From: Thermodesulfobacteriota bacterium
Lineage (GTDB): Bacteria > Desulfobacterota > Desulfobacteria > Desulfobacterales > SURF-7
Direction of reading: 5' to 3'
DNA length: 64,000 nt
NCBI GenBank assembly: GCA_049320885.1
Contig: JBMORA010000014.1
Span: forward strand, 32,001-96,000
Part shown: positions 20,138 to 38,018 of the stretch, in pieces
How the letters are laid out: every line of letters begins with the position of its first letter
Position numbering within the stretch: the first letter of the stretch is position 1
Made by a program: the position numbers and the translations under genes
Notes under the pieces: model-generated
The model's input: the letters and a program-made list of their open reading frames with translations, nothing else
Databases searched by the model: none
Told to the model about the DNA's origin: nothing

Positions 20138-20204
20138 GCTTGGGTTCCTCCTTCATTTCGGCAAGCATCCGACCCTTTTTGAATACATACTTTAAAAACG
20201 CTTT

Positions 20205-20232
20205 ATTCTAATCGGTTTTCCCCGCTTGTCAA
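20205..20232 (-). promoter_or_regulatory. sigma70 promoter of the rplU-rpmA-obgE-proBA run
   Basis: Minus strand TTGACA-N16-TAGAAT. Confidence 0.6.
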
Positions 20233-20261
20233 GAAAAAATTTTCCCTTATGAACCGGCTGG

Positions 20262-21077: not shown

Positions 21078-21242
21078 GAGTGTTTTCCCTCGGTATGGTT
21101 GATCCTCACAACCGGTTAGGTCGTGGAAATGGATTTAGCCTATTTTGGGCGAAAAACCAACAGGCAACCGTGGGCATGGAGGCGCCCATTGCGGGACAGC
21201 GGGAGGATTTGACCGCCGAAAAGACGTTTGCGGTCATTTTCC

Positions 21243-21662
21243 TCAGGGAGGAACGGGTGCGGGTTCCAATGGCAGGTTCCCGGTTTTCCAGGCCTGCATG
21301 TCTCCCTCCAGATACAATATTTCCCGGAAACCGACCAGCCGGAAAGCCGGCTTGGCCAACACCGCCCGAGGGCCGTGTTCACAGTAGATCACGATGGGCT
21401 GGTCGGGAGTGGCGGGAACCCGGTCGTATCTTGACAGCACGGCCCAGAAGGGTATGCTGATGGCGCCGGGTATATGCCCGGCTTCATATTCGGCGGCCGA
21501 CCTGACATCCACGATCACCGGCGGGTTGCCGGCCCTGATCCGCTCAAGCAAAATCGGACCGGGGATTTCACCGGGCGCTCCGGTGGCACACCCGGTTGTT
21601 AGAACGGCCAGCAGAAGGCCCGTCAACCGTTTACGAAATAACAGGAAAATGCCGTTCGACAT
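21243..21662 (-). CDS. Rhodanese-like domain protein, probable lipoprotein
   Basis: LLLAVLTTGC lipobox-like; VDVR, GHIPGA, YCEHGPRA, LEGDMQAW. Confidence 0.88.
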   Translation of the reverse strand: MSNGIFLLFRKRLTGLLLAVLTTGCATGAPGEIPGPILLERIRAGNPPVIVDVRSAAEYEAGHIPGAISIPFWAVLSRYDRVPATPDQPIVIYCEHGPRAVLAKPAFRLVGFREILYLEGDMQAWKTGNLPLEPAPVPP

Positions 21663-21886
21663 GCTCCACCCCTTTTTCCGGTACAATATTGCCAAGCGTT
21701 AATAGCCGGTCAATCCTATCGCAATTTATGTAAGCGGTCAAACCTCCCGCGCCGAAGGCTTGGCTTTACAACCGGGCCACGATTGCGATACAAGCAATTC
21801 AGGGCCGTCGATGATCGCGGGGCGGGAGTGGTTTCGATTTCATGGGAGTCTGAACCCGGCAAACCATCCGTTTCCAGGGGGTGCTT

Positions 21887-22561
21887 ATGATCGATACAAA
21901 GGAAATACAGGACAATCTCTGGCAGGTCGGAGGCGACGACCTGTCCGGACCGGGTGACGCGGCGATCTATCTGGTTCGGTTCGGTCCGGAGGCGGCGCTG
22001 ATCGATGCGGGTTGCGGCCAGGGGCATCAAACCATCCGGCGGAACATTGCAGCCTGCCTGCCGGAAGACATTCCCGTTTCGTTTCTGATTTTGACCCATT
22101 GCCATTACGACCACAGCGGTGGGGCCGCCCGCCTGCGGGAAGAACTGGGCTGCCGGATCGTGGCCCATGTCCTGGACGCGGTTTATCTGGAGACCGGCGA
22201 CAGCGAGGTTACAGCCGCTTGCTGGTACGGTGCGCGCATGGAACCGCTGGTAGTCGACGTCAAACTGGACGGTCCGGACCATCGCATTGAAGTGGGCGAC
22301 GGATGCCTTCACGCCCTGCACATGCCGGGGCACTCGCCCGGCTCCCTGGTGCTGACCACCCGGATGGAAGACCAGTTGGTATTGTTCGGGCAGGATGTTC
22401 ACGGACCCATCCACCCTGCCCTGCGCTCCGACCGGGCGGCATATCAGGCCTCCCTGCGGCAACTGCTGGATCTGGAGGCGGATCTCCTGCTGGAAGGACA
22501 TTTCGGTGTTTTTCGCGGCAAGGAGCGGGTGCGGCGGTTTGTCCGCTCCTTTATAATATGA
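21887..22561 (+). CDS. Metallo-beta-lactamase fold hydrolase
   Basis: LIDAG, THCHYDHSGG, PGHSPGS, EGH. Confidence 0.9.
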   Translation: MIDTKEIQDNLWQVGGDDLSGPGDAAIYLVRFGPEAALIDAGCGQGHQTIRRNIAACLPEDIPVSFLILTHCHYDHSGGAARLREELGCRIVAHVLDAVYLETGDSEVTAACWYGARMEPLVVDVKLDGPDHRIEVGDGCLHALHMPGHSPGSLVLTTRMEDQLVLFGQDVHGPIHPALRSDRAAYQASLRQLLDLEADLLLEGHFGVFRGKERVRRFVRSFII

Positions 22562-22616
22562 GGACAGTTTGAAAAAGCGAATTCAATAACTGATTTCATT
22601 CTAATCTGGAGGTTAC

Positions 22617-22955
22617 ATGGAAAACCGTGTCTTCATCAAAAACATTCCCTTTTCAGAACCCCAGGTTCTGGCGGATCTGGTCGATTATGCAGAAGGCCGG
22701 GTGGTCAGCCGCACTTTTGCCCAACAACCGTCTGTCGGGATAACCCTTTTTGCATTTGACCAGGGTGAAAGCGTCAGCACGCACACCGCACCGGGCGACG
22801 CCATGGTGCAGGTGCTGGATGGAGAAGCCCTGGTGAATGTCGACGGGAAAGAGATGACGGTGGTCAAGGGACAAGTAGTGGTTATGCCTGCCAATGTTCC
22901 TCATTCCGTGACAGCGGTCAAACGCTTCAAAATGTTGCTGACAGTGGTGAAATGA
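22617..22955 (+). CDS. Cupin domain protein
   Basis: TLFAFDQGE..STHTAPGDA...MPANVPHSV...FKMLL. Confidence 0.9.
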   Translation: MENRVFIKNIPFSEPQVLADLVDYAEGRVVSRTFAQQPSVGITLFAFDQGESVSTHTAPGDAMVQVLDGEALVNVDGKEMTVVKGQVVVMPANVPHSVTAVKRFKMLLTVVK

Positions 22956-23512
22956 CCGGAACCGCCCATCAATGGAAAATTCCTTTTGACCGTTCCTATT
23001 GGGTTGAGCCCGGCCGGCTCATGGCCGGGTGTTTTCCGGGCTCGCCCTCCCCCGGCGAGGCACATCAGAAACTGAAAAAACTTCTGGCATGCGGAATCCG
23101 GGAGGTTGTCAACCTCATGGAGCCTCATGAACGGGATCACCATGGAAAACTCTTTGAGAGCTATGAAGGCCCCCTGCGGTCGCTGGCAGATGAAATGGGA
23201 TTGGACGTCACTGTTGCGCGTTTTCCCATAAAGGACGGAGATATCCCCACCCGCCTGGAAATGTGCCGCATACTTGATCATATCGATGCCGCCATTCAAA
23301 ACGGTCGCCCGGTCTATCTGCACTGTTGGGGCGGCCGGGGCCGCACCGGCACGGTGGTGGGCTGCTACCTGGCGCGGCACGGACTTGCAGCGGATCATCA
23401 GGTTTTGAAAATGATCAAGGTGTTGCGGCAGGATGTTCGTGATGCCCATTCAGCGTCGCCGGAGAACTCCTGGCAGATCGATATGGTGCTGTCATGGGTG
23501 GAAAGGGAATAA
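22952..23512 (+). CDS. Protein-tyrosine / dual-specificity phosphatase family protein
   Basis: FPIKD acid loop and HCWGGRGRTG (CX5R) active site. Confidence 0.9.
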   Translation: MTGTAHQWKIPFDRSYWVEPGRLMAGCFPGSPSPGEAHQKLKKLLACGIREVVNLMEPHERDHHGKLFESYEGPLRSLADEMGLDVTVARFPIKDGDIPTRLEMCRILDHIDAAIQNGRPVYLHCWGGRGRTGTVVGCYLARHGLAADHQVLKMIKVLRQDVRDAHSASPENSWQIDMVLSWVERE

Positions 23513-23519
23513 ATTCATT

Positions 23520-24737
23520 TCAGAAAGAAAAGGTGATTTTCGCGGCAAAGAGGAACCAGTGAGGATTGGTGCCGTAGCCGTCCGGATTGTCGGCATTCAG
23601 CAGAATCGCCGTTCCGTTCATGAAATGGCCTTCCAGTTTCGCTATCCAGTTATCGTTCAGGTCAAAACGGGTGGACAGACAGGCATCCTTCAGCCAGGCC
23701 CGGTGAAAGAATTCCTGGTTGTTGCCGTCCCGGTCGAAATCATCCGGGTAGTATTCGGCATAATAAACGCCGGTTTCGAAGAAGGAAGTCAGCCGGTAAA
23801 CGGCGCTGCCGTAATATCCCTGGGTATAGAACTCGGGGACAAAATCCGGCGTGACGTTCAACACCTGGGAATTGGTCGGCTGGATTTCCCAATCGATTCT
23901 GGAATATTCGGCCGCCAGGATCAGGTTCTTCCAGGTATATTCAGCGGACAACGTAAAGGATTTCGCATCGAGGGAAAAGTCGGTCTGGAGCGGCAGGGCG
24001 GTTGTGTCCATCCTGGCGATGAAGGCCAGCGCCCAGTAAGAACATCCGAGCCGCAGGCTTTCGCCGGGCGAAAGCCATTGCAGGCTGGCGATGTCGCCTC
24101 TTTCCACTTCAACCTCCTGAACCGCGATGGGAATATCCCGGGGTACCTGATCGTTGAAATGCAGGGCGGGACCGCTTTGGCTGTCGATTTCCACGGTTCC
24201 GATTTGAGCCCGATACGCCAGGCGGCCCAGCTTCATCAGCGGCAAATTGCCGAACACCCCGACGCCTTTATTGGCCGCGATCACATCCCGCCAGGATTCA
24301 TTATAAACGCTTTGGGGCAGGAAGATATTGGTCCGCAGCATATCGACATCCCTGGTTTCATTGTAGAGACCATGGGGGACCTTCATCTTGCCGGCGGCGA
24401 AACCCAGCCAGTCCCGCCAACGATATTCGGCCACCGCCCAGTCCAGAAAGACCTCGTCGTTTCCAATCTGACCCAGATCCCGGGCAAACAGTTGGATGCC
24501 TACGCGCAAGTGGTATTCCGGCATCTGGGTGATGAAATTGATACCCATTTCGTTCAATTCAAAAGTCCCGGTTTCGGTTTCGGCGAAGAAATTGTTGTCG
24601 GTGCTCTGCATATACCCCTGGGATACAAAGCCGTGGATGGCAATGTCGTCGGGATACGATATTCCGTCACCAAAGGCGGCGCCAGCGGCCAGAGCGACGG
24701 CAATTGCCAGCCAGCCTGTGAGTACCGTTCGCATCAT
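23520..24737 (-). CDS. Outer-membrane beta-barrel (porin-like) protein
   Basis: Signal peptide; IHGFVSQGY, LDWA..EY, GKMKVPHGLYNETRDVD; C-terminal alternating strand ending in Phe (AKITFSF). Confidence 0.82.
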   Translation of the reverse strand: MMRTVLTGWLAIAVALAAGAAFGDGISYPDDIAIHGFVSQGYMQSTDNNFFAETETGTFELNEMGINFITQMPEYHLRVGIQLFARDLGQIGNDEVFLDWAVAEYRWRDWLGFAAGKMKVPHGLYNETRDVDMLRTNIFLPQSVYNESWRDVIAANKGVGVFGNLPLMKLGRLAYRAQIGTVEIDSQSGPALHFNDQVPRDIPIAVQEVEVERGDIASLQWLSPGESLRLGCSYWALAFIARMDTTALPLQTDFSLDAKSFTLSAEYTWKNLILAAEYSRIDWEIQPTNSQVLNVTPDFVPEFYTQGYYGSAVYRLTSFFETGVYYAEYYPDDFDRDGNNQEFFHRAWLKDACLSTRFDLNDNWIAKLEGHFMNGTAILLNADNPDGYGTNPHWFLFAAKITFSF

Positions 24738-24813
24738 ACCGCGCCCCTCGACTTTTTTGCGGCGTTGCCGTTCATTGTCACCTGCTCCTGAAGCGGAAAG
24801 CGGTTGTGCCACC

Positions 24814-25296
24814 TTATTCCCCTTCCAGAATGTGAATGCGTTTCACTCCCGCCAGTTTTGTCTGGCGGGATACATACCCGATGGCGCCGGGTGTTTTTCG
24901 CACATACGAAACCACGCCGGCCTCGTTTTTCAAGGCGCGGGGCGGAAAGCCCCGTCCGGAAAAAATCAGTTTTTTCCAATAGCGGCTGTACTGCGAAGGG
25001 GTTTTCCGGAGATATGTCGTTACGAACATATCATGAACGTCGCCGCCGGGCAGCGTTACGAACAGGATGGGCTGGTCGTCCGGCCAGAGTGTCTTCTCGC
25101 CCTTGTAAATCAGTTTCAGATCGTTGAGCGCGAGGCTGTCTATCGGCAGGTTTTGATGACCGATGATGATAACATCACCGGTTTTGTTTTCTTCCGGAAA
25201 AGCCGCCGGGATCCAGAAGGCAGAAATTCCTGCAAGGGAGCAGACGATGAGAAGAATCAGACGTCTTTGCGGCGGAATCCTTGGGGTAGGCTTCAT
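24814..25296 (-). CDS. Small exported phosphate-binding-protein-like (PBP2/PstS-like) single-domain protein
   Basis: Signal peptide; IYKGEKTLW.D, YWKKLIFSG.G.PP, VRKTPGAIGYV. Confidence 0.8.
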   Translation of the reverse strand: MKPTPRIPPQRRLILLIVCSLAGISAFWIPAAFPEENKTGDVIIIGHQNLPIDSLALNDLKLIYKGEKTLWPDDQPILFVTLPGGDVHDMFVTTYLRKTPSQYSRYWKKLIFSGRGFPPRALKNEAGVVSYVRKTPGAIGYVSRQTKLAGVKRIHILEGE

Positions 25297-25305
25297 TGAA
25301 CCGAA

Positions 25306-25334
25306 ATTATAGGCGATGGAAGAAGATGTGTCAA
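25306..25334 (-). promoter_or_regulatory. Perfect-consensus sigma70 promoter for the binding-protein/porin pair
   Basis: Minus strand TTGACA-N17-TATAAT ending about 10 nt before ATG 25296. Confidence 0.7.
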
Positions 25335-25389
25335 TAAGTGCCTCGAAAAGAATGTAAAAACAATCGGATGAATTTTTTGACCAGCGGTC

Positions 25390-25417
25390 TTGACAAAGCT
25401 GCCCGTCTTTGTAGAAT
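25390..25417 (+). promoter_or_regulatory. sigma70 promoter for the sulfotransferase
   Basis: TTGACA-N16-TAGAAT. Confidence 0.55.
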
Positions 25418-25471
25418 CGGTTCGGACCCGTTCGACCCGAAACAGCATCTTCCGGAATTACCCCCCAGCGG

Positions 25472-26644
25472 ATGGATATGAAAACGAATTTACTCGGCAG
25501 GCTTTTTTCCCCGGAACACAGCGGCAAATGGCGGATGCCGACCGGTACCTATTGGTTGATCCGGGCGTTTCACAGCCTGCGCCCGCTGCTGTTCCACCTC
25601 AGCGGACTGGAAACCCGGTTGCTTGGAAAGGAACTGGACGGCATCACCATTGACCGGCCCATATTTATCTGCGGCATTGCGCGATCCGGCACCACCATCA
25701 CCCTGGAAATGCTGCACCACCATCCGGACGCGGCCTGCCATTTGTATTATCATGCGCCGCTGCCGCATCTGCCGGTCTGGTGGGACCGAACGGTTACCTT
25801 CCTGCCGCTTCCGATTTCCAAACCCGTGGAGCGTCTCCACAGGGATGGGTTGCTTGTCAATCAGAAGAGTCCGGATGCAATTGAGGAACGCTTATGGATG
25901 GACTTTTTCCCGGATCTTCACGATGAGCAACATTCCAATGTCCTGTCTGAAAACCATCGCAATGAACGCTTTGAAGCGTTTTATCGCGACCACATCCGTA
26001 AACTGCTGTACCGGCAGGACGGAAAACGCTATTTGACAAAGAACAACTACAACATCACGCGGCTGGAATACCTGTTGAAACTATTTCCCGATGCGCGCTT
26101 CCTGCTGCTGGTGCGAGATCCCGCGGATCATATCGCCTCGTTGATGAAGCAGCACCGGCTTTTCACCGCATTGGAACTCGGGCAGCCCGGTCTGAGCAAA
26201 TGGTTGAATATTGTCGGGCACTATGAATTCGGCACCTCCATACAATTGATCAATACAGGCGAGGCGGGCGCGGTCGATCACATCCGGGATCTGTGGTCGC
26301 GGCGGAAATACGTCCAGGGCTGGGCGGCCTATTGGGCTTCCATTTATCATTTCGTTGCCGATCGTCTGGAGCGGAATCCGGCGCTGGCAGCCGCGTCCCT
26401 GATCGTCCGCTACGAAGACCTGTGCGCGGATTCCGGCGGCGCCATCGACCGGATCCTCTCCCATACCGGTCTCCCGGCTGAAACGTTTTCAGCTGTCCGA
26501 GAACGCTATGTCCGGCGGTTACAACCGCCGCGCTATTACAAACCCGATTTTTCTAGAAACGATTTGAACGATATCCGCATGATCACCCAGTCGGCGGCCC
26601 GGCGGTGCGGATATGACCGGCCAGCCTCCTGCTCGCCTCCGTAA
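25472..26644 (+). CDS. PAPS-dependent sulfotransferase family protein
   Basis: PIFICGIARSGTT (5'-PSB), LFPDARFLLLVRDP..HIAS (3'-PB), VRYEDLC. Confidence 0.9.
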   Translation: MDMKTNLLGRLFSPEHSGKWRMPTGTYWLIRAFHSLRPLLFHLSGLETRLLGKELDGITIDRPIFICGIARSGTTITLEMLHHHPDAACHLYYHAPLPHLPVWWDRTVTFLPLPISKPVERLHRDGLLVNQKSPDAIEERLWMDFFPDLHDEQHSNVLSENHRNERFEAFYRDHIRKLLYRQDGKRYLTKNNYNITRLEYLLKLFPDARFLLLVRDPADHIASLMKQHRLFTALELGQPGLSKWLNIVGHYEFGTSIQLINTGEAGAVDHIRDLWSRRKYVQGWAAYWASIYHFVADRLERNPALAAASLIVRYEDLCADSGGAIDRILSHTGLPAETFSAVRERYVRRLQPPRYYKPDFSRNDLNDIRMITQSAARRCGYDRPASCSPP

Positions 26645-26782
26645 ATCGCGACCATCGGTTACCGGCCAGGGCTCGGGAAAAACAAAGCATTAACTGTACA
26701 CTATCTTCCAGTCGTAAATTATCTATATATTTTATATTAACAATAAGTTATAAAACATATGGCGCCGTATTTGTCAAAATAT

Positions 26783-26800
26783 ATTGACTATATGGTCAAT
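26783..26800. promoter_or_regulatory. Palindromic operator candidate ATTGAC-N6-GTCAAT
   Basis: Perfect 6-bp arms within an AT-rich intergenic region upstream of the acyl-CoA dehydrogenase operon; overlaps TTGACT. Confidence 0.6.
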
Positions 26801-26940
26801 TTGTCATAGGCAATGCCAGGGACCGGATGCGCCGGCTCCGCTTGTATACAGAAACATATATCGGATTCAATGTGCCTTCCCGGCATGACGTCAGCTCCAA
26901 GTGGCTGTCATGCCGGGGCCGACCCGGGAGGCGACACCCG

Positions 26941-28482
26941 ATGTCCCCGATACGATACGGTCTTTCAGCCGAGGCGCCGGATCTGGCGGAAGGCCTGCCG
27001 GCCCTGGCCAGGCTGAAGCTCCATTGTCCGGACTATGTCCGCAGGGCTGAAGATGCCCAGCGGGTTGCCCGCCGATTCGCCAGGGAAGAACTGCTGCCCA
27101 AGGTCTTGGAAATCGACACCCGCTGTTCCGCGGATCCCGCCTATGTGGACTGGAATCTCTGGCGACGTGCGAATGAGCATAAGCTGACCATATCCCCGAT
27201 ACCTGAAAAACTGGGCGGACTGGGCTGGAGCGCGCTGGGAAACGCGGCGCTGGTGGAAGAACTGGCCAGCGTCTGTATGGCCAGCGCGGCCAACATCACT
27301 TTCAACACCTTCGGTCTGTTGGGTGCCATGGTGGAATGCCGCACCGGCATTCTGATGCGGATCATCCGGCAGATGGTGGCGGCCCAGAAGGCGGAAAAGC
27401 CCCTCTTCTGGTCCTGGGCCATCACGGAGCCCGGGGCCGGCACGGACATGGAGGAAGAGAGGGCCATGAAAACCATGAAGCCGTCCACCAGTGCCCGAAA
27501 AGTGAGCGGCGGGTATCGCCTTAATGGAACCAAGTGTTTCATCACCAACGGCAGCCTGGCCCAGTATGTGATCGCCAATATTCCCCTGGACCCGCAATCA
27601 CCGCTGGAATCCATGGCCACGTTCCTGATACCGGCCTCGTCCAGAGGGTTTTCCGTTGGGCGAGTGGAACGAAAATGCGGCCAAAAGGCCAGCCAGACCG
27701 CCGAGCTTTTTTTTCAGGACGTATTCGTTCCGGAGGAGAATCTGTGGGAACCTCCAGGAAGGGGCTTGCGGCATACGCGGGAAATTCTGTCCATCACCCG
27801 CGGGTATATTGGACTGGCGGCCCTGGGCATGGCCCGGGGTGCCTTCGAACGCGCTGTTCAGTACGCCGCCCGGAAACAAGTCCGGCACCACCGGCTGATC
27901 GACGAAGAATGGGTCCAGTTTGCCTTTGCCGACATGCTCAAGGAGATAGCCGTGGTGCGGAGTGCGGCCTACGAGTTCGCCCTGGCCCTGGATAACCGGC
28001 ACGTCTGGAGTCTGTTTGACAAACTGCCGGTGAAACTCGGGTTGAAGCTGATGCCCGGATGGCTGCTGAATAGCCGTTTTCTGATACAAATGACCCAATG
28101 GCCGCCCATCGACCGCCTGGGCTCCTGGTATAAACACAGCTTGGTGCCGGACCACCGGGTGGAGGAATTCCTCAAGATGGGATCCGCGCTGAAAGTGGCC
28201 GGAACCGATCTGGCCGTTAACGTGACTTCCCGGGTCCTGGATGTGGTGGGGCTCGAAGGCATGGCGTATGGCCACGGCATTGAGAAATATTTCCGTGATG
28301 CCAAGATCACCCAGATTTACGAGGGCACCAATCAGGTCAATCGTATGGATCTGTTTCACCATGAGATCGGCCGGCAACTGGAATTACCGAAACTCCGCCG
28401 GTCGGAGAAGCGGATAGGAATGCCTGAACCTCAAACCAAGGACGACAGGTCATGTCCCGGCCCATGCTGCATGCGATTCTGA
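26941..28482 (+). CDS. Acyl-CoA dehydrogenase family protein (catalytic-type subunit)
   Basis: GGGAGG RBS; WAITEPGAGTD, NGTKCFITNG, FRDAKITQIYEGTNQ. Confidence 0.9.
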   Translation: MSPIRYGLSAEAPDLAEGLPALARLKLHCPDYVRRAEDAQRVARRFAREELLPKVLEIDTRCSADPAYVDWNLWRRANEHKLTISPIPEKLGGLGWSALGNAALVEELASVCMASAANITFNTFGLLGAMVECRTGILMRIIRQMVAAQKAEKPLFWSWAITEPGAGTDMEEERAMKTMKPSTSARKVSGGYRLNGTKCFITNGSLAQYVIANIPLDPQSPLESMATFLIPASSRGFSVGRVERKCGQKASQTAELFFQDVFVPEENLWEPPGRGLRHTREILSITRGYIGLAALGMARGAFERAVQYAARKQVRHHRLIDEEWVQFAFADMLKEIAVVRSAAYEFALALDNRHVWSLFDKLPVKLGLKLMPGWLLNSRFLIQMTQWPPIDRLGSWYKHSLVPDHRVEEFLKMGSALKVAGTDLAVNVTSRVLDVVGLEGMAYGHGIEKYFRDAKITQIYEGTNQVNRMDLFHHEIGRQLELPKLRRSEKRIGMPEPQTKDDRSCPGPCCMRF

Positions 28483-29585
28483 ATGAATGCCGCCATTTCG
28501 GTAAAAAGGAAATCCGTCCTTCCTGTCTTGCTGCCGATGCCGCCTCGGATTGGGGCTGGGCGAAAACCGTCTGCCGCCGAAGCGCGGTGATGGATATTCC
28601 GAATCTCATGATACCGGAAAACCCGCCGCAAGTCATGGCAGGGGCCCGGATTTGCGCCGCTGTCCTGGATGTGCTCGCTTTTGAATGCGCTTCCGTTGCC
28701 TCCATTCTGGCCCACCATTTTGCGGCCTCCATACCCCTGGTGGCCAGCCAGTCGCCGTCTGCGAATGAATTTGCAGTCCGAGCCGCAGGGGGCGATGAGG
28801 TTCTACTGGCTGGAGTGCTGTTTCCCGATGAACAGGAGGAAAATGGTCTGAGACTGCAGGAAACGGAAACCGGTCTGGCTTTGTCCGGCAGCCTTCCATT
28901 GGCGGGCAACGCCTTTGCGGCCGACTGGTTTTGTCTGTTCCTGGATGAAGGCTCCAACAGGCCGGAAATTACCTGTCTGCTGGTCCGGAAAAACCAGCCG
29001 GGTGTCGCTGTTGGCCCTGACGCCGGATTGCCGGGATTGAAAGCCAATCCCTTCGCACCCATGACATTTACGGATGTGGCCATTCCGCCGGAGGCGATGT
29101 TGGCCGAACGTGGAAAAGCCGGACCGCTGCTGAATCAAACCCGGTCCGCTTTTTGGGGATTTATCGCCGCAACGGCCATGGGTTGCGCCCGTAAGGCCTT
29201 CCAGACCGCCCATACCCACGCTGCCCAGCGGTATCAGTTCGGCCGGCACATCATCCGGCATCCGGAAATCCAGCGCATGCTGGGCCAAATGTTGATGAAG
29301 CTGAATGTCGGCACCGCAGCCTATGAATCCCTGTTCCAGGAAACGGATCGCGGCCTCCCTTTCCCCGGGCTCGATGCAGGACTGATGAAAGGCTTCTGCG
29401 CGGACTGCGCCCTGGAGATCGCCCTGGATGCCGTTCAAATCCACGGTGGATACGGTTACATGCAGGAATACGGCGTTGAAAAACTCATGCGCGACGCGAA
29501 AGTGCTTCAGCTGCTGGGAGGTGGTAGCACCAGCCACCAGATCCGCTGCATCGCCAAGGGCCGAGAGGCATATGGTCCTCGCTGA
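28452..29585 (+). CDS. Acyl-CoA dehydrogenase family protein (degenerate, probably non-catalytic subunit)
   Basis: QRYQFGRHI and AVQIHGGYGYMQEYGVEKLMRDAK retained; TEP..GSD and YEG motifs absent. Confidence 0.88.
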   Translation: MSRPMLHAILNECRHFGKKEIRPSCLAADAASDWGWAKTVCRRSAVMDIPNLMIPENPPQVMAGARICAAVLDVLAFECASVASILAHHFAASIPLVASQSPSANEFAVRAAGGDEVLLAGVLFPDEQEENGLRLQETETGLALSGSLPLAGNAFAADWFCLFLDEGSNRPEITCLLVRKNQPGVAVGPDAGLPGLKANPFAPMTFTDVAIPPEAMLAERGKAGPLLNQTRSAFWGFIAATAMGCARKAFQTAHTHAAQRYQFGRHIIRHPEIQRMLGQMLMKLNVGTAAYESLFQETDRGLPFPGLDAGLMKGFCADCALEIALDAVQIHGGYGYMQEYGVEKLMRDAKVLQLLGGGSTSHQIRCIAKGREAYGPR

Positions 29586-31116
29586 TTTTTCCAGAAACCC
29601 TTGCGGAGTGCCCATGAAAAACCATAGAGGCCTTGAATCCCGTTGGGCATGGATGTGCCTCCCCTACCCGGCCCGGATCCGCTCCGCAATAAGGGAAAAG
29701 GATATGGACCGAGCCATATCCCTGAGCCGGGAAATGTCCCAGAGCACCATTTCCCTGCATGATTTTTTTGCCGATTCCTGCGCGGTGTTGTGGAGCTGGG
29801 TCAGCGGGGAAATGGGAGAAGACTCTCTGCCGGCGCTTTTTCGCTTCATTTTTTTTCATGCCGCCCGGAGGCAGTATTTCGATGCCGCCAGGGCCCAGGT
29901 GATGCCCCATTTGACGGTCGGATTGCTGGCCAAGTCCTGGCGGGCCCACAGTTGCTTCGGTGCGGGCCCCTTTCCGGGAAAATTCCACATTTCGGAGGAT
30001 GAGGAGAAATTCACGTTTCATCTTCACCCCTGCGGCAGCGGCGCCCGGCTCTGGCTGAGGGGCATATACGCGGAAGGAAAAGGGGGTGCCTGCGTTCGTC
30101 AGGCAAGAACCTGGACATATGGCCGGGATCATTTTCCGGTTTACTGTGTCCATTGCCCTTTCCTGAATGAAATCCTGCCCTGGGAATCAACCTATGGCGC
30201 CTTGCTGTGGCCGGTTGATCCGCCCGAAAAATTCGGGAAAGACGAATGCCGCTGGTACGTCTATAAAAACCCGGGCGACATACCGGAGCATCACTACGGC
30301 CGCCTTGGAATCCGAAGAAAGCGGAAATCATCCGGATCGGCCTCGGGAACATTCCGGCGGATTTTTTCAGAGCGGGAGCTGGTGGAGATGAGCAGGCCCG
30401 TTACCGATCGCCTGGCGGAAGCCCTGGGAAGAAACGATATCCGGCAATCGGCACGTCTGGTCCGGGAGGTCCGCGATGAATTCCTTACCCTGCATGATCT
30501 GTATGTCATGATGATCTCCGCCACGTTGACGTATATCGCCGCTTTCCTGGGGGAAGACCGGCTTGGTAACGCCCTGGAGGTCCAGTATGAGCGGTGTGTC
30601 CGGCCCATCCTTCGGGAGCTCGCGGGCCGAACGGCAATGGATCGGGTTGCGTTTCTGGCAGGCCGGGTTTTCGGCGCCGATGCCTGCAATGGAACCGGCC
30701 TTCACGGCGCCCGCTTCCACCTGGAAGAAACGGACCAGTCCTGCCGCTTCATCCTCGCGCCTTGCGGCAGCGGCGGACGCCTTATCAACAGCGGCGCCTG
30801 CGATCCCATGCCGCTCACCGTTCGATACCGGGAACAAGTGGAAAACAGCCTGGCCCGGTGGGGAACCCATCTGCTACCGCTTCCTGAAAAACCGGTCGCC
30901 ATGGTTTTCCCCCGGCTGGTGACCCATTTCACCCAGCGCAAACCCTACGATCAAGGCCGGACCCGAAGTCCCCGCTCCTGGTCCTTTGACCGGAAAAATC
31001 TACCCTATTATTGCTGCCAGTGCGGCATGTTGCAGCAGAAATTGGGAGACTCGGTATTACGGATCCGGCCGCCCTATAAAAAAGGAGATGTCTGTCGCTG
31101 GGAAATTGATCCATAA
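29572..31116 (+). CDS. Hypothetical protein made of two tandem Cys-rich domains
   Basis: Each half has LHD...E.E....F.L.PCGSG.RL...W...R...P.YCxxC...CRW; GAGAGG RBS overlapping the upstream gene. Confidence 0.85.
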   Translation: MVLADFSRNPCGVPMKNHRGLESRWAWMCLPYPARIRSAIREKDMDRAISLSREMSQSTISLHDFFADSCAVLWSWVSGEMGEDSLPALFRFIFFHAARRQYFDAARAQVMPHLTVGLLAKSWRAHSCFGAGPFPGKFHISEDEEKFTFHLHPCGSGARLWLRGIYAEGKGGACVRQARTWTYGRDHFPVYCVHCPFLNEILPWESTYGALLWPVDPPEKFGKDECRWYVYKNPGDIPEHHYGRLGIRRKRKSSGSASGTFRRIFSERELVEMSRPVTDRLAEALGRNDIRQSARLVREVRDEFLTLHDLYVMMISATLTYIAAFLGEDRLGNALEVQYERCVRPILRELAGRTAMDRVAFLAGRVFGADACNGTGLHGARFHLEETDQSCRFILAPCGSGGRLINSGACDPMPLTVRYREQVENSLARWGTHLLPLPEKPVAMVFPRLVTHFTQRKPYDQGRTRSPRSWSFDRKNLPYYCCQCGMLQQKLGDSVLRIRPPYKKGDVCRWEIDP

Positions 31117-31325
31117 GGACTTTTTTTCCTGCCGCCCCCATCCATATCCTTTTGTGTTGACAACCCGGATGATCCGGTATTTATAGAATTATTCTTTGAA
31201 CAAAGTTAATGAAATTCGCGAAAACCCGCCGTCCGGAGAGGTTCCGGTAGATTTGCCTGCGTCCGGCATCGCGGCAAGGGGCGGGCATCCGGTATATCCA
31301 CTTTTTCGGTGAAAGGCGGAATGCT

Positions 31326-32210
31326 ATGAAACGTATCGGTTATTCCCTCGGTTTAATGACGGTTTTGATGCTGTCGGTTTCATTTTTATCCTGCGATGAA
31401 AGCCAGATCGTCGATCTGAGCTCCCACCAGTCGCAGGGTCTTCCGGCGCAAAAGTCCGGACTGGCGCTTCCCAAATTGAGCCTGGTGAAACTGCAGGGCA
31501 AGTTGAACCATTTCGGCATGGACATCTCCCAGTCCCCGCCCCAATACATCGATTACCATGCCACGGTGCCGGACGCCAAGGTCTGGATCGCCGAATTTCC
31601 CTTTACCCGGCATCTCAATATCCGCTCCGACGAAACCGGCTGGTGGACCATGTACATCATCAAACGGAAGGGCGTGGATCTGGCATTTTCCCTGGTGTAT
31701 GAAAAAGAAGGCTGGATCACCACCAAATCCAATAAAATCCGGGTCACCGACGAAGACAACCTGGATCTCGCCATCCAGTTCATTGACCCGGCCTATTATA
31801 CCTATGCGGTGAAACCCACGGTGGAGGGTATGCTGGGAACCACTCTGGCCAACGCCCTGGTGGTGACGGTGGGAAAATCCTGGGCCAGCATGCACGATGA
31901 CCGCCTGCCCCATGGCGATGCCGGCGCCCTGGCCGTCATGGCGCCGCTTTCGTCAGCCATAGGTCCCATCTATTTCAACGAGGCGGTGTTTCCCGATCCC
32001 ACGTACACCGCCACCTCCATTGACGGCGGCGTTGCCTGGATCAATGTCCCGGCGGGAGAATACCATATCACGGCCCAGAAGACCGGTGTCGCCTATGAAA
32101 CCGTGACCTTCGACATCCGCGAGTCCGATGCGGACAAGGGCATTGTCCTGTATATCGCCTCGCCGCCGGATTCGATCCAGGGGGACAACGACTCCCCGCC
32201 CGGGGAATAG
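31326..32210 (+). CDS. Hypothetical lipoprotein, beta-rich
   Basis: Lipoprotein signal MKRIGYSLGLMTVLMLSVSFLSC; NVPAGEYHITA resembles a carboxypeptidase-regulatory-like Ig strand. Confidence 0.8.
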   Translation: MKRIGYSLGLMTVLMLSVSFLSCDESQIVDLSSHQSQGLPAQKSGLALPKLSLVKLQGKLNHFGMDISQSPPQYIDYHATVPDAKVWIAEFPFTRHLNIRSDETGWWTMYIIKRKGVDLAFSLVYEKEGWITTKSNKIRVTDEDNLDLAIQFIDPAYYTYAVKPTVEGMLGTTLANALVVTVGKSWASMHDDRLPHGDAGALAVMAPLSSAIGPIYFNEAVFPDPTYTATSIDGGVAWINVPAGEYHITAQKTGVAYETVTFDIRESDADKGIVLYIASPPDSIQGDNDSPPGE

Positions 32211-32312
32211 GAATCCGGCGGATAAGCGGTCGATATCTATCTTAAGAGCCTGTAATTCCCGGGATCGAGGGTGCTAGTACTGCCATCCTTTTACGAACAC
32301 TCACCGGGTCTT

Positions 32313-32366
32313 TGCATCCGGTGGAAGGGGCGGACGACAGGTCCGCGGCCCTTCCACCTGGATGCA
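32313..32366. terminator. Long GC-rich hairpin between convergent genes
   Basis: TGCATCC.GTGGAAGGG.CGGAC / GTCCG..GCCCTTCCAC..GGATGCA. Confidence 0.55.
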
Positions 32367-32374
32367 GGCAGGCT

Positions 32375-33907
32375 TTACTTGAGCAGCACCGGCATACCCA
32401 TGAGGGGCCAGATGAAATAACAGAAGAGTCCCAGAACCGTCATTAAAATCACACTGGGAATGCAGCCGTAGAGGAAAAATTCACCGGTGGAGAACTGCTT
32501 GCTCTCATAGGCGATGGCATTGGGCGCGGCGCCGATCAGCAGGTTGAAGGGCATGCCGGCGGCGGCCAGGGAGGCGAAGAAGATGACATGGGGCGCCACT
32601 CCCAGGTAATTGGCGATGATCAGGGAAACCGGCAAGGTGATGGCGATGGCCGCCACGTTCATGATGAAGTTGGTCATGCAGAGCACCAGAAAGGCGATGG
32701 CCAGGACGAAGACCAGCCAGGGGGCGTGCTGGAACCAGCTCACCCAGCTCACCGCCATCCATTCGGCGGCCTTGGTGTCATAGAGGCAATAGCCGATGCT
32801 CATGGCCCCGCCGAAGAGCAGGATGATGTTCCAGGGGATCCCTTCCATTTCCTCCACGCCGAGAACCTTCACGAGGAAGAAGATCAGGGTGGGCACCATC
32901 ATGATGGCGGCCCGGTCCATGTTCTTGAAAAAGGGGATGGGCGAAAAGGATTTCATCATGAAGAGGCCCAGGACCAGGGCCACCATGGCGAGAACGATCT
33001 TCTCCTTCCCGTTTATGGGGCCGAGATCCTTGGCCAGGCCGGCGACCCGCTCCCGCAGGCCCTCGATGCGGGGTTTTTCCGGCTTGAAGAAGAAGATCAC
33101 GATGAGCCAGATGAGAAACACCATGAGCAGGCCCACGGGAAGATTATAATAGGTGAACTCGAAGAAGCCGATTTCCTGGCCGCCGGTGAATTTTTTGAAC
33201 ATGCCGGCGCCGGCCACGCCGCGGGCCGAGCCGAGGAAGGTGATGATGGAGCCGGCGCCGGCGGTCCAGGCCATGCCGATGAACAACCCCTTGCCGAATT
33301 TGGTTGGCTGGTCGGAGTCCGTATAAAGGGAATGAATGGCCAGCAGGAGGGGGAACAAGGCCGCCGCCACGGCGGTGTGGGCCATGAGCAGGGTCATGCC
33401 GGCGACAATGAGAAAGGTGCCCAGCAGGATGAAGTTCGTGTTTTCGCCAACAATGCCCAGCATCTTGTAAGCCATGCGCTTGGTGAGACCCGAATGGGCA
33501 AAGGCCAGGCCCATGACCACGGATCCGAAGATGAACCAGACCGAGGGATCGAAGAAATCCTTCAGGGCCTGGTCCGAGGTCCGGATGGCGAAGATCACCT
33601 GGAACAGGCCGATGCCGATGGCCGTGGCGCCGATGGGCATGACCTCGAAAATCCACCAGACCGCAGCCATCAGGAAGAGCCCGATGGCCATGCGGCCCTG
33701 GGACGGCAACGGAAAATGTTTGCCGGCAGGATCCACGGCGTCCGGCAGGTCGCTCATGAAATAGAAGGTAAAGAAAAAGACCAGTCCCAACAGAATGAAA
33801 AAGACTCTCTTCCAATTGATATCCGCCATCCAGGAGGATGAAAGCGTTTTTTCGGATACGGAGCCACTGCCCGCATCCGCCGATATCGCGTTCACATTTT
33901 GCGCCAT
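32375..33907 (-). CDS. SLC13/DASS family anion:sodium symporter
   Basis: AAGGAG RBS; many TM helices; WWIFEVMPIGAT, GLTKR, IPWNIILLFGG, LLIGAAPNAIAY. Confidence 0.93.
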   Translation of the reverse strand: MAQNVNAISADAGSGSVSEKTLSSSWMADINWKRVFFILLGLVFFFTFYFMSDLPDAVDPAGKHFPLPSQGRMAIGLFLMAAVWWIFEVMPIGATAIGIGLFQVIFAIRTSDQALKDFFDPSVWFIFGSVVMGLAFAHSGLTKRMAYKMLGIVGENTNFILLGTFLIVAGMTLLMAHTAVAAALFPLLLAIHSLYTDSDQPTKFGKGLFIGMAWTAGAGSIITFLGSARGVAGAGMFKKFTGGQEIGFFEFTYYNLPVGLLMVFLIWLIVIFFFKPEKPRIEGLRERVAGLAKDLGPINGKEKIVLAMVALVLGLFMMKSFSPIPFFKNMDRAAIMMVPTLIFFLVKVLGVEEMEGIPWNIILLFGGAMSIGYCLYDTKAAEWMAVSWVSWFQHAPWLVFVLAIAFLVLCMTNFIMNVAAIAITLPVSLIIANYLGVAPHVIFFASLAAAGMPFNLLIGAAPNAIAYESKQFSTGEFFLYGCIPSVILMTVLGLFCYFIWPLMGMPVLLK

Positions 33908-34036
33908 TGCTGATAACTCCTTTCGTTCGATCCTATTCAATCAAGTGCTGGGTTGATCGTCGCGTGGCGACGGTCTTCCCGGGTATCATCGTTTTCATAA
34001 ACCAATAACCTGTTTCAGGGGGCCGCCTGGAGCGGA

Positions 34037-34591
34037 TCAAAGCCGACAGGCTTTCATCCGTTCGCAGATCTCATGGAACACATCGCTCTGCCGCAGAATC
34101 CCCACCACGGAAGCCCCTTTTTTGACCAGCAAGGAGGCAAAGCGGCCCATGACCATCTGGTGCAGGGCCTGATCCAGGGAGGCGTCCTCCTGGATGAATT
34201 CCAGGGGTGAGAGCGAGTGCATGATTTCCCGGACGTTGATTCCGGCGGCCTTCTGGCACAGATTTTCCAGGGGCTTCTGCCACAGCCCGAAATTGTCGAT
34301 CATGGAGCGCAGAAATTCCGGGCTGAAGCCGTACCGGGAGGATTCCCGGATGTCCCCGATTTGTTTGTAGCGGGGTTCCAGAGCCCAGAGCACGGCCCAC
34401 TGATCGATCTTGCCGGTCACATGTCCCCGGCTGTCCAGCACCAGAACGGCCCGGTGCTTTTCCCGTCCTTGTTCCACATGGGCCTGGGCCTTCTCCAGGG
34501 CAAGGACCGCCTCGTTCAGGGTGACATCCTCCGAAACCGTGGCGTATTCGGCGATGGGCACCATCAAGTCTCCAGCTTTGATTGTCTGCAT
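34037..34591 (-). CDS. CBS domain pair protein
   Basis: DLMVPIAEYATV, HRAVLVLD..G...G, LLV.....VVGILR.SDVF. Confidence 0.9.
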   Translation of the reverse strand: MQTIKAGDLMVPIAEYATVSEDVTLNEAVLALEKAQAHVEQGREKHRAVLVLDSRGHVTGKIDQWAVLWALEPRYKQIGDIRESSRYGFSPEFLRSMIDNFGLWQKPLENLCQKAAGINVREIMHSLSPLEFIQEDASLDQALHQMVMGRFASLLVKKGASVVGILRQSDVFHEICERMKACRL

Positions 34592-34651
34592 ATCTTCTCC
34601 TTATTGAAAGCGTCATTCATAAACCGCAACCAGACTTTCCATCCGGCCTGA

Positions 34652-35083
34652 TCAATCCCAGCCCTTCCGCATCAGGATGTTGTCGATATGGGCCTGCCGG
34701 ATGCGGGCCTCCTGCTCGGCCTTGCGGGTATAGGCCAGGACGATCTTTTCAATGAGTTCCTTGGTGTCGGCCGGCTTCCGGAGATAATCGAAGGCGCCGC
34801 GCTTGAGTCCCTCGATGGCTGTCTCCACGGTGGCGTTTCCGGTCAGCATGATCACTTCCACCAGGGGCTTGGCCTTTTTCATTTCGAGCAGCGCCGTGAT
34901 CCCGTCCTTTCCCGGCATGAGCACATCCAGGATCACCACGTCCACTTCCGTCTTGGCGATCCGATCGAGGGCCGCGTCGGCCGAGTCGGCCTTTAGCACC
35001 TCGAAATCCCTGACCTCCAGTCGTTCGGCCAAGGCGTCGACGAATTCCTGCTCGTCGTCCACCAGCAATACCTTTATTTTCAT
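34652..35083 (-). CDS. Single-domain response regulator
   Basis: LLVDDE, VILDVLMPG, MLTG, DYLRKP. Confidence 0.93.
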   Translation of the reverse strand: MKIKVLLVDDEQEFVDALAERLEVRDFEVLKADSADAALDRIAKTEVDVVILDVLMPGKDGITALLEMKKAKPLVEVIMLTGNATVETAIEGLKRGAFDYLRKPADTKELIEKIVLAYTRKAEQEARIRQAHIDNILMRKGWD

Positions 35084-35174
35084 GAACCCTTCTCCTTGTC
35101 TATATGGTTTGATTTGGTCGGACCCTCTGCGGGTCCGAGACATATCGATATCTCGCTGCATGCTTCCAGCCTTT

Positions 35175-35636
35175 TTATTGGTCGCCCGGTCCCGGCAGCC
35201 GGGTTTCGGAGCGGGAAGCCTGTTTGCCTGCAGTGGTTTCCCTGCGCCTGTCTTTCAAGCGCGTTTTTCTTTTTTTATGCGCCTCCCGGATGCGGTCGGC
35301 CAGGACCTGGATGTCGATGGGCAGCAGGAGATCGTCGAAAGCCCCCAGCTGCATCGCCTTGATACCTCCGTCGAAGGAATGCTCCTCCGCAGCTGTCAGC
35401 AAAATCACTTCGGAATACGGGCGCACCTCCCGGATCGTTTTGAGAAAGGCCAGGCGGTTCTGGCTGGGGCCGGTAGCGCCCAGCAGAATCACATCCGGGT
35501 CGTCCCGATGCAGGATATCGCTGGCCTCGGATTCAAGCGATGTCTCCAAAACCGTGTGGTTTTCAAGGCGCATGCGCTCCACAAGTCGGCTGCGGAAAAA
35601 ATCATCGGGGTGCAGGATCAGCAGTTTCATTCTCAT
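35175..35636 (-). CDS. Atypical (pseudo-) receiver domain protein
   Basis: Receiver fold pattern (DVILL, EVILLT, GAFDDLLLP) but the phospho-Asp is Gly and the conserved Lys is Leu. Confidence 0.8.
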   Translation of the reverse strand: MRMKLLILHPDDFFRSRLVERMRLENHTVLETSLESEASDILHRDDPDVILLGATGPSQNRLAFLKTIREVRPYSEVILLTAAEEHSFDGGIKAMQLGAFDDLLLPIDIQVLADRIREAHKKRKTRLKDRRRETTAGKQASRSETRLPGPGDQ

Positions 35637-35795
35637 CTATGGCTATTGTCTATGGCTATTATCCGTCCATTCGGGTGGAAGCGGAGGCTACGCATCCGGG
35701 CATCGCTCCACCACCTTCTTTCCATCGCCGCAAACCGTTTTCTGGGGTGTTCCACCTGTTCACGAAATGCCGGTTTTGACGGTTATCCTGCATTG

Positions 35796-35811
35796 AGCAA
35801 CAACCGTGCCG
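35796..35811 (-). promoter_or_regulatory. sigma54 (-24/-12) promoter for the pseudo-REC/REC/CBS/DASS operon
   Basis: Minus strand CGGCACGGTTGTTGCT = GG-N10-GC, close to the TGGCACG-N4-TTGCW consensus. Confidence 0.75.
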
Positions 35812-35895
35812 AAGGGTTGATCGATAGATATTTGAATGGGTTATAGAAATACTTGCCAACCGAAGAGAATTCTGATAGAACAAATAAAAACATAA

Positions 35896-35933
35896 TGATA
35901 CAATATTGATACACTATGAAACATTATGATGCA
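35896..35933. repeat. Four phased TGANNCA boxes (candidate upstream activator sequence)
   Basis: TGATACA 35896, TGATACA 35907, TGAAACA 35917, TGATGCA 35927. Confidence 0.6.
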
Positions 35934-36034
35934 TTTATCTGGCTACGGCAGCCGAAAGCCTTGCTTTCAGCCAGGATGCCGCGGAGAAGAGTCGCTTTCG
36001 TCCATGGCGGAAAGAATCGGAAAATGAGGAATCC

Positions 36035-37534
36035 ATGCGTGAAGAACTAGCCCATAACGGACGGTTACCAGGGACCGGTGCGCTGGATGTATCGGCGGCC
36101 CTGCCTTTCATTGTTGACGAGCTTCCGCTGGGTATCGTGGCCATGGATTGTGAGCGCCGGGTGGTTCTGTTGAACCGCTCCATGGAAGCCTTGACCGGTT
36201 TTGATCGAAGAGCGGCCAGCGCCATCGCCTGCCGGCATATCATCCGGGGGGATTTCTGCATGGGGAAATGCCCGGTCCACAGCATCAGCCAGGGTTCGGG
36301 CATGATGTGCGTCGAAGGCAACATCATCAATCGGGAACGCCAAAAGATTCCGGTGCGGGTAACCTTCACCCCCATCCGGGATTCAGGGGGCCGTCTGATG
36401 GGATTTTTCGAAACCTTCGAGGATATCCGGATACTGGCGGCAAACAAAGGTAAAACGTCCGAAGCCTATTCCTTCGGGCAGCTGGTCGGCAGAAGCCCGC
36501 AGATGGAGCAAATCTACCGATTCCTGCCCATGATCGCCCAGTCCGATTCATCGGTGCTGCTCACGGGTGAAACCGGTACCGGGAAAGACCTGGTTGCCGA
36601 AGCCATCCACCAGAATTCTTCCCGGGCCAAAGGACCCTTCATCAAAGTCAATTGCGGTGCCCTGCCCGCCACGCTTCTGGAATCCGAACTGTTCGGCCAC
36701 CAAAAAGGTGCCTTTACCGGTGCGGTGGAGAGCAAGCCCGGCCGATTCCGGCTGGCCCATAACGGGACCCTTTTTCTGGCCGAGATCGGTGACCTGCCGC
36801 TGACGCTGCAGGTGAAACTGCTGACCTTTCTGGACGACCGGGTCGTCCATCCGTTGGGCAGCACCAAGGGGCTTCTGTGCGATGTGCGAGTGATCGCCGC
36901 AACCCATCGGGACCTTGAACAAATGGTCCGGGAAGGAACATTCCGGGAGGATCTGCTTTTCCGGCTGAACGTCATCCGCCTGCAATTGCCCTCCCTGCGG
37001 GAACGGAGAAACGACATCCAATTGCTGCTGGATCATTTCCTTCAGACGTTTTCCACCCGATATAAAAAACCGATCCGGGCGTTTTCCGCCAATGCCTTGC
37101 GGATTCTTCTCAATTACGCCTATCCCGGGAATGTGCGGGAGCTGAAAAACATCGTCGAATATGCCGCGAACGTCTGCCAGGAAAACCAGATCCGTTCCGA
37201 ACATCTTCCGGCCTACCTTATCCGTCCGATTACAGCGGAGCAGGCTTCGGCGGACGGAATCGGGGCGGCAGGCGGATCCGGCGGGCGGATCCAGCCGGAA
37301 GGAAAGAGCGATGATTCCGACCGCGCCACCCGGGAGCGAAAAATCATCATCGACGCAATCCGCAACGCGCGAAAGGATGAACAGGACGGACTGGAATGGC
37401 CGGAAATCGAGCGGAAAATGATCGTCGATGCCATTGTCAAGGCCCAGGGCCGGCGGAACCGGGCGGCCGGCTTTCTTGGCTGGAGCCGGAGCAAGCTGTA
37501 CCGGAAAATGCTCCAACACGGAATCGGAGCATGA
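36035..37534 (+). CDS. PAS-domain sigma54-dependent transcriptional activator (OrpR-like)
   Basis: PAS with C-X8-C-X3-C; GETGTGKD, ESELFGH, GAFTGA, FREDLLFRLNV, PGNVREL; C-terminal Fis-type HTH. Confidence 0.93.
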   Translation: MREELAHNGRLPGTGALDVSAALPFIVDELPLGIVAMDCERRVVLLNRSMEALTGFDRRAASAIACRHIIRGDFCMGKCPVHSISQGSGMMCVEGNIINRERQKIPVRVTFTPIRDSGGRLMGFFETFEDIRILAANKGKTSEAYSFGQLVGRSPQMEQIYRFLPMIAQSDSSVLLTGETGTGKDLVAEAIHQNSSRAKGPFIKVNCGALPATLLESELFGHQKGAFTGAVESKPGRFRLAHNGTLFLAEIGDLPLTLQVKLLTFLDDRVVHPLGSTKGLLCDVRVIAATHRDLEQMVREGTFREDLLFRLNVIRLQLPSLRERRNDIQLLLDHFLQTFSTRYKKPIRAFSANALRILLNYAYPGNVRELKNIVEYAANVCQENQIRSEHLPAYLIRPITAEQASADGIGAAGGSGGRIQPEGKSDDSDRATRERKIIIDAIRNARKDEQDGLEWPEIERKMIVDAIVKAQGRRNRAAGFLGWSRSKLYRKMLQHGIGA

Positions 37535-37592
37535 GACCATCCGGTTTTCATAAACAGAACCGGGATTCCGGACCCAGAGACAGGAGATGTCC

Positions 37593-37946: not shown

Positions 37947-38018
37947 AGCGGTTCGCAGGACGACCGCAACCGGTCCGGCAGGAAAACCGAAGGCCGATTT
38001 TTTTGATACCGTCACGCG

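Follow-up and report, generated by a model that had tools for sequence, protein, structure and literature searches.

The 64,000-nucleotide stretch of DNA considered here (the window) comes from a genome assembly of a Thermodesulfobacteriota bacterium (GenBank GCA_049320885.1, contig JBMORA010000014.1, positions 32,001 to 96,000 of the forward strand). Its + strand carries three overlapping open reading frames (ORFs), which encode two acyl-coenzyme A (acyl-CoA) dehydrogenase (ACAD) proteins, ACAD-α and ACAD-β, and a third protein that we call X (Table 1). The three genes are likely regulated together as the core of a β-oxidation-like pathway that breaks down a hydrophobic carboxylic acid. Within this pathway X may serve as a metal-dependent hydratase or isomerase acting on the enoyl-CoA product, as an enzyme separate from the dehydrogenase, a reading to which we assign a probability of roughly 0.4.

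The genes for α and β overlap by 31 nt and those for β and X by 14 nt. Most 300-nt windows near the operon have a GC content of 55-64%, against 27% in the control region, which contains an 18-nt palindrome with the arms ATTGACTAT and ATGGTCAAT; the left arm looks like a -35 hexamer. A σ70 scan of the region found no + strand promoter reaching threshold, and the hairpin after X is not significant alone (9 hairpins in the region, 5.6 in shuffles). A first-pass annotation had described three overlapping genes behind an AT-rich, palindrome-bearing control region, and the coordinates, overlaps and base composition all agree with that description.

Table 1. Features of the trio and its control region, in window coordinates
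Feature	Position	Strand	Basis or remark
AT-rich control region 5' of operon	26691-26815		27% GC
Palindrome, core TTGACTATATGGTCAA (TTGACY-N4-RGTCAA)	26783-26800		candidate operator of MerR-TetR fusion regulator
ACAD-α	26941-28482	+	start chosen, GGAGG ribosome site before 26941; longest ORF begins 26827
ACAD-β	28452-29585	+	ORF, acyl-CoA dehydrogenase by family match
X (third gene), 514 aa	29572-31116	+	tandem repeat of unnamed four-Cys domain; later start 29614 possible
X domain 1, about residues 20-247	29629-30312	+	alignment and domain model
X domain 2, about residues 264-512	30361-31107	+	self-homology and alignment
Weak terminator-like hairpin 3' of X	31165-31177	+	

The acyl-CoA dehydrogenase pair

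The two ACAD proteins have complementary motifs, which upholds the earlier view of a two-subunit enzyme. ACAD-α carries ITEPGAGTD, KCFITNG and, in IYEG, a Glu at the catalytic position, together with degenerate RxQFG and QxxGG motifs and an insertion of about 60 residues near 352-414. ACAD-β keeps RYQFG and QIHGGYGY and is without TEPxxGxD, KxFITN and the YEG Glu. The motifs of the α set would belong to the flavin-ring side of the flavin adenine dinucleotide (FAD) site and those of the β set to its adenosine side. Orthologues from the fetched loci repeat this division: ITE[PA]xxGTD, KxFxxNG and I[YF]EG are present in 27/27 α sequences, with RxQFG and QxxGG degenerate in the variants displayed, and [IV]Q[IV][HF]GG[YH]GY is present in 29/29 β sequences, with RYQ[FY]G in the variants displayed. 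The YEG-position Glu is absent from every β sequence displayed (21 of the 29). A search for a helix-G Glu, confined to a single 9-residue window and its 12 most frequent variants, found none.

Known α2β2 ACADs (ChsE1-E2, ChsE4-E5, Scd1AB and IpdE1-E2; PMC8399759) have a catalytic Glu in one subunit, thus one per αβ, and FAD at the interface; they share with this pair an adjacent gene arrangement, the single catalytic Glu and the split FAD motifs. Because the motifs are split in complementary fashion and only one Glu is present, the pair reads as an α2β2 ACAD, and the two genes likely form one such dehydrogenase. Unlike the ChsE, IpdE and Scd enzymes, the pair has an MCAD-type YEG-loop Glu, the α insertion, an anaerobic host and a linked third gene, and its nearest solved sequences are homotetrameric medium-chain and short-chain acyl-CoA dehydrogenases (MCAD and SCAD). 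The 41 and 60 PDB matches shown include none named as ChsE. The IpdE2 model scores 18 bits on β against a cut-off of 450, PimC/D scores are also far below cut-off, and an IpdE2 search of the host returned nothing above cut-off, nor did any positive control reach it. Since MCAD and SCAD are nearest and the IpdE2 and PimC/D scores fall so far short, the pair probably lies outside the ChsE clade. The heteromer appears to derive from the MCAD/SCAD-like group and not from the ChsE group, and such descent would represent a further origin of the α2β2 architecture.

The host also encodes a paralogous ACAD pair on contig C65, flanked by a short-chain dehydrogenase/reductase (SDR) gene and without X. 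In a quick tree, on which we lean loosely as the careful search is unfinished, each C65 member groups with its counterpart (support of 99 and 87 in the Shimodaira-Hasegawa-like approximate likelihood ratio test, SH-aLRT). By inspection, C65:21338-24847 comprises a long-insert ACAD and a degenerate ACAD with the SDR gene upstream; genes for an AraC-type regulator and an acetoacetate-decarboxylase-like protein lie close by. Hydrophobic-moment analysis singled out neither the α nor the X insertion as a membrane anchor.

Protein X and its family

The earlier statement that the third gene belongs to no named family is supported: X has no Pfam or NCBIfam match and no sequence relative in the PDB. 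Its two halves are homologous (blastp E 2e-19), the product of an internal duplication. A word-based search returned 73 relatives, mostly full-length and with 40-55% identity, of which the named ones are all hypothetical proteins. A profile search of 1.84 billion representatives found 846 clusters, defined at 50% identity, at E <=0.001, comprising single-domain, tandem and longer forms. The ATC_hydrolase and DUF6125 Pfam models matched none of 65 tandem members at E 0.1, and no Pfam domain reached cut-off in the 76 of 150 listed representatives scanned at E 0.001. Weak CTLH, PPR and B12-binding_2 matches in at most 7 of the 65 members were dismissed as helical noise. One homologue (P0076) has an X-family domain fused behind a B12-binding domain of the methylmalonyl-CoA mutase C-terminal type, and single-domain homologues look frameshifted in two actinobacterial assemblies (L063:7992-8712 and L065:7989-8718).

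Eight Cys (C154/C192/C195/C226 and C398/C481/C484/C508) are invariant in 26/26 tandem proteins. Domain 1 further holds H63, D64, W123, H126 and H194 in all 26, and N199 and E200 in 25. Domain 2 keeps H308/D309, has Asp in place of H126 and mostly Gln in place of H194, is without N199/E200, and has an insertion at about 412-455. The domain-1 residue set recurs in 27/27 single-domain actinobacterial proteins. Across 142 of 192 distant domain rows (rows with fewer than 150 matched columns dropped, gaps scored as misses), C154 is retained in 96%, C192 in 85%, H194 in 82%, C195 in 75% and C226 in 83%, with H63 at 80%, H126 at 65% and E200 at 47%. Such conservation marks domain 1 as the likely catalytic half of X and makes it fairly probable that X is a metalloenzyme.

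Predicted fold of X

The models of X are confident, with predicted local distance difference test (pLDDT) values of 91.4 and, for domain 1, 90.8; C192 and C195 sit on helix 190-205. Compared with 48,161 chains, domain 1 was closest to Bet3-TPC6B (Z 6.2, root-mean-square deviation (rmsd) 4.6, 143 aligned), then to BcsD (6.1), archaeal TRAPPC3 (5.2), DmpR (5.0) and PoxR (4.4). Seven of the eight top VIA rows (Z 4.4-6.2) are TRAPP/Bet3, DmpR or PoxR, the eighth being BcsD, and the top Foldseek match is PoxR (probability 0.85, E 0.068). A whole-protein fold search was uninformative. The nearest named clusters in the Atlas are DUF6125 and ATC_hydrolase (feature scores 0.80-0.83, template modelling (TM) score 0.55 by row), which are leads only, and hhalign placed C154 on the first Cys of ATC_hydrolase (E 2.5e-4). 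These middling fold scores agree with one another, with the Atlas neighbours and with the weak C154-aligning profile match, and they weakly suggest that domain 1 belongs to the V4R/H-NOX/Bet3 fold group.

According to PMC13254051, D27, a member of the same fold group, has four Cys that ligate a [4Fe-4S] cluster and converts β-carotene to an isomer inside a hydrophobic pocket; the corresponding pocket of Bet3 contains palmitate. V4R domains are believed to bind hydrophobic ligands (PMC2253512). The likeness of X to D27, by description and not by sequence comparison, consists of a candidate H-NOX/TRAPP-type fold, a set of four conserved Cys of which the middle two share a helix, and an expected hydrophobic substrate. 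The two differ in that D27 has CxxxC and X has CxxC, and in that X is a tandem repeat with extra invariant His, Asp and Glu in an acyl-CoA context. The D27 family (PF13225) gave no Pfam match for X or its relatives, and a host search for the family, run with no positive control, was empty. ATC_hydrolase (PF14196) and DUF6125 (PF19620) are akin to X as Atlas neighbours and through the C154 alignment, but their Pfam models miss X and its relatives, and the aligned ATC-like proteins are without the CxHC motif. The V4R domains of PoxR, MopR and DmpR and the Bet3/TRAPP proteins provide the top structural matches, at Z 4-6, rmsd 4.6-5.8 Å and at most 14% identity, whereas X stands alone, with no AAA+ or DNA-binding output.

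Linkage of X with the dehydrogenase pair

We compared 67 loci, comprising 32 with tandem X (full-length or contig-cut, from 30 genomes), 1 with a contig-edge fragment and 34 with single-domain X. In the tandem loci, ACAD-β lies next to X in 29 of 32 and α is close by in 27. The linkage extends to Actinomycetota, and at two loci (L028 and L029) the order is X-α-β with the palindrome directly before X. Single-domain loci have the orthologous ACAD pair in 0/34 cases and an SDR gene directly downstream in 28/34. The linkage that the first-pass annotation proposed to score is seen with tandem X and not with the single-domain homologues. Among the latter, those in L033:2597-8693 and L052:5730-8852 share their clusters with a hydantoinase B/acetone carboxylase gamma fusion and with genes for an acyl-CoA ligase and an SDR.

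We also sampled 301 genomes across the class. The sample, which overlaps the 67 loci and includes kin that are not independent, contains ACAD-α in 18 genomes and full tandem X in 11. The 17 ACAD-α genomes other than the host have X adjacent (8), on another contig (1), as a remnant behind β (1) or not at all (7); the last seven, 98-100% complete, give no X match even by domain profile. One X genome is without an ACAD-α match at E 1e-100. X thus nearly always travels with the ACAD pair, yet the pair does not need X, and the link is one-way. As 7 of the 17 pair-bearing genomes are without X, X is not an obligate subunit, and the proposal of a dedicated three-protein complex, taken as obligate, finds no support in these counts. 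The remnant (L089:10200-10800, G101) is a C-terminal piece of X with stops, in a cluster otherwise complete, and looks like a recent loss.

Three X-less genomes have a SnoaL_4 gene in the position of X behind ACAD-β (L100:10967-11464, L102:2319-2849 and G061:C202:3317-3790), and a search of the 11 X genomes for its orthologue found none. Dehydratases such as BaiE belong to the SnoaL_4 family. The pairwise identity of α rises with that of X (Spearman 0.79), as kinship alone would lead one to expect.

Palindrome, regulator and regulon

In relatives, the neighbours of the trio include a PaaK-like ligase (8 loci), other AMP-binding ligases, an SCP2-type thiolase, an iron-sulfur (Fe-S) nitroreductase, a zinc-dependent alcohol dehydrogenase (Zn-ADH), SDRs, an epimerase-4Fe-4S fusion and DUF2284 genes, and a MerR-TetR fusion regulator stands beside the trio in 7 loci. 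The motif TTGACY-N4-RGTCAA, with at most one mismatch, has 24 matches in 18 of the 32 tandem loci, all except one flagged intergenic. It lies directly before ACAD-α in 6 loci and before X in 2 X-first loci, and the remaining sites are mostly before thiolase, nitroreductase, epimerase or regulator genes. The host has it in 13 of 4324 upstream windows (7/635 among AT-rich ones). Exact host sites precede the trio operon, a nitroreductase orthologue (C29, 69% identity) and a 4Fe-4S/oxidoreductase pair (C47), and a one-mismatch site precedes an epimerase-thiolase-ligase operon (C49). The host regulon is scattered, and the regulator orthologue on C24 has no site there. The regulator occurs in 25 of the 301 genomes, including 18/18 with ACAD-α and 11/11 with tandem X.

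Counted over whole genomes, the palindrome was not enriched in either of two sets of 5 genomes, one with the regulator and the other lacking it. Because the palindrome keeps its position before cluster genes in relatives and the regulator co-occurs with them, it is likely the operator of the MerR-TetR protein, in line with the operator first proposed. Taken together, the co-regulated regulon and the heteromeric ACAD are a part of the interpretation that we regard as very likely to be right. At C24:27039-32444 the regulator orthologue is followed by α/β-hydrolase, AMP-binding and 3β-hydroxysteroid dehydrogenase (3β-HSD)-like genes, which we take to resemble oleBCD.

Flanking genes and host background

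A sulfotransferase (Pfam Sulfotransfer_3) and a putative lipoprotein share the operon strand, at gaps of 296 and 209 nt respectively. Their same-strand position is as first described; as operon parts they were rejected, since they are linked in 0/67 loci (flanks <=8 kb, many shortened), and we consider them bystanders. The lipoprotein (window 31326-32210), single copy in the genome and unlinked in relatives, has weak similarity to a carboxypeptidase-regulatory-like β-sandwich. Divergent from the sulfotransferase, window 23520-25527 (- strand) encodes a 430-residue outer-membrane-like protein without Pfam match and a PstS-like periplasmic binding protein.

No crotonase, electron-transfer flavoprotein (ETF) or CoA ligase is evident among the genes adjoining the trio (ORF list for 20000-38000 read by eye, 8 proteins family-scanned). 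The absence of ligase, ETF and enoyl-CoA hydratase noted in the first pass holds here, that of the ligase being local, as relatives cluster ligases and a thiolase with the trio. The host genome has four ETF-domain matches elsewhere, as two pairs, and its dsrA scores above the curated cut-off, which agrees with the sulfate-reducing lifestyle originally assumed. Six glycyl-radical enzymes resembling pyruvate formate-lyase (PFL) are encoded on contigs C9, C17, C25, C28, C46 and C53.

Discussion

The cluster supplies activation, dehydrogenation, second oxidation and thiolysis, and its hydration step is without a recognised enzyme; crotonase queries matched 0/32 tandem loci. In the pathway that we propose, the regulon CoA ligase would activate the acid. 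ACAD-α would then give the flavin-ring site and the catalytic Glu and ACAD-β the adenosine-side FAD contacts, making one site per αβ, and electrons would pass to a general ETF encoded elsewhere. X would bind a [4Fe-4S] cluster (or Zn) via C154/C192/C195/C226 in a V4R/H-NOX-type hydrophobic pocket, with domain 1 acting through H63/D64/H126/H194/E200 and domain 2 as a degenerate partner in the place that a second monomer takes in single-domain relatives. An SDR, Zn-ADH or epimerase-like dehydrogenase together with the SCP2-type thiolase would complete the cycle, and the MerR-TetR protein would bind TTGACY-N4-RGTCAA. A hydratase or isomerase is the most likely role for X because the catalytic-type residues are confined to domain 1 and an SDR stands beside the single-domain forms. 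Of the neighbours, the SCP2-type thiolase and the 3β-HSD-like, BaiCD-like and SnoaL genes would suit steroid-like acids, but all named-family scores are below cut-off.

Several observations weigh against this interpretation. Every fold match of X is below Z 8 and none reaches Foldseek E 0.001, the profile match to ATC_hydrolase is merely 43% probable, and the Cys spacing of X is 38/3/31 against 12/4/27 in D27. Four Cys ligands would leave no open Fe site, unlike the situation in aconitase-type dehydratases. The host has 18 crotonase-like matches, which could act in trans, and a MaoC domain was absent among the neighbours scanned (40, plus 46 of 105 further), which leaves some room for a MaoC-type hydratase. 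Three tandem loci (L015, L021 and L024) are without an adjacent pair. Four of the seven X-less genomes have neither X nor a SnoaL gene, and the three with SnoaL are of one family, so they probably represent one event. The exact palindrome is not consistently above its reversed control genome-wide (5/3, 2/3, 2/6, 9/7 and 2/0), and three genomes have their nearest site within the coding sequence of ACAD-α.

The alternative that survives best, an unlikely one in our estimate, places X, still a metalloenzyme of this regulon, at another step, such as ring-opening, amide or ester hydrolysis in the manner of ATC hydrolase, or isomerisation before activation, and not on the ACAD product. DUF6125 and ATC_hydrolase as nearest Atlas clusters, the hydantoinase B/oxoprolinase and α/β-hydrolase genes also found near single-domain homologues, and the B12-binding fusion would all fit. 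When relatives are set beside the scattered host regulon, however, X and the ACAD pair remain together and the ligase, thiolase and nitroreductase genes are found on other contigs, and consecutive steps are favoured for this reason.

It is distinctly unlikely that X is instead an Fe-S electron-transfer partner with one cluster per half, relaying electrons from the ACAD flavin and replacing or preceding ETF. Retention of all four Cys by both halves in 26/26 proteins, the lack of an evident ETF beside the trio and the 4Fe-4S domains of other regulon members speak for a relay; the invariant His, Asp, Trp and Glu of domain 1 exceed what a relay needs, the host has its two pairs of ETF-domain matches, an SDR follows the single-domain homologues in 28/34 loci, and seven genomes have the pair without X. 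A non-catalytic role for X, in which it would bind or carry the ligand as part of a fixed complex of three proteins handling a bulky acyl-CoA, we regard as improbable. The overlapping genes, the hydrophobic ligands noted above for V4R domains and Bet3, and the α/X identity correlation, though expected from kinship alone, are in keeping with a carrier, against which stand the invariant catalytic-type residues, the 7/17 genomes with the pair and no X, and the paralogous pair on C65, also without it. Chance adjacency, with the palindrome a by-product of AT-rich promoter sequence, could draw on the reversed-control counts in several genomes and the sites within ACAD-α, but for the linkage it is largely refuted, and as a whole it is very improbable, given adjacency in 29/32 loci, including Actinomycetota and the X-α-β order with its site directly before X, and a motif present in just 7/635 AT-rich host upstream windows.

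The hydratase or isomerase reading has a broader and more doubtful form: X may be the founder of a large family, as yet without a name, whose members are Fe-S hydro-lyases or isomerases on the H-NOX/V4R/D27 fold. It would replace crotonase beside a heteromeric ACAD of independent origin, and the anaerobic pathway, not previously described, would serve bulky, steroid- or isoprenoid-like lipids in sulfate reducers and syntrophs. The heteromeric ACAD and the β-oxidation regulon are of known kinds. For the linked four-Cys family, the operon, the regulator and its site, no description was found in a literature search that left most subscription papers outside its reach. The linkage gives an unannotated family of several hundred clusters a testable handle, and it outlines a regulon of regulator, operator, ligases, ACAD pair, thiolase and Fe-S nitroreductase in sediment sulfate reducers, syntrophs and deep-branching Actinomycetota. 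If X is indeed an Fe-S hydratase or isomerase, it would show a fold associated chiefly with sensing to be capable of new chemistry and would indicate an unknown anaerobic route for recalcitrant hydrophobic acids.

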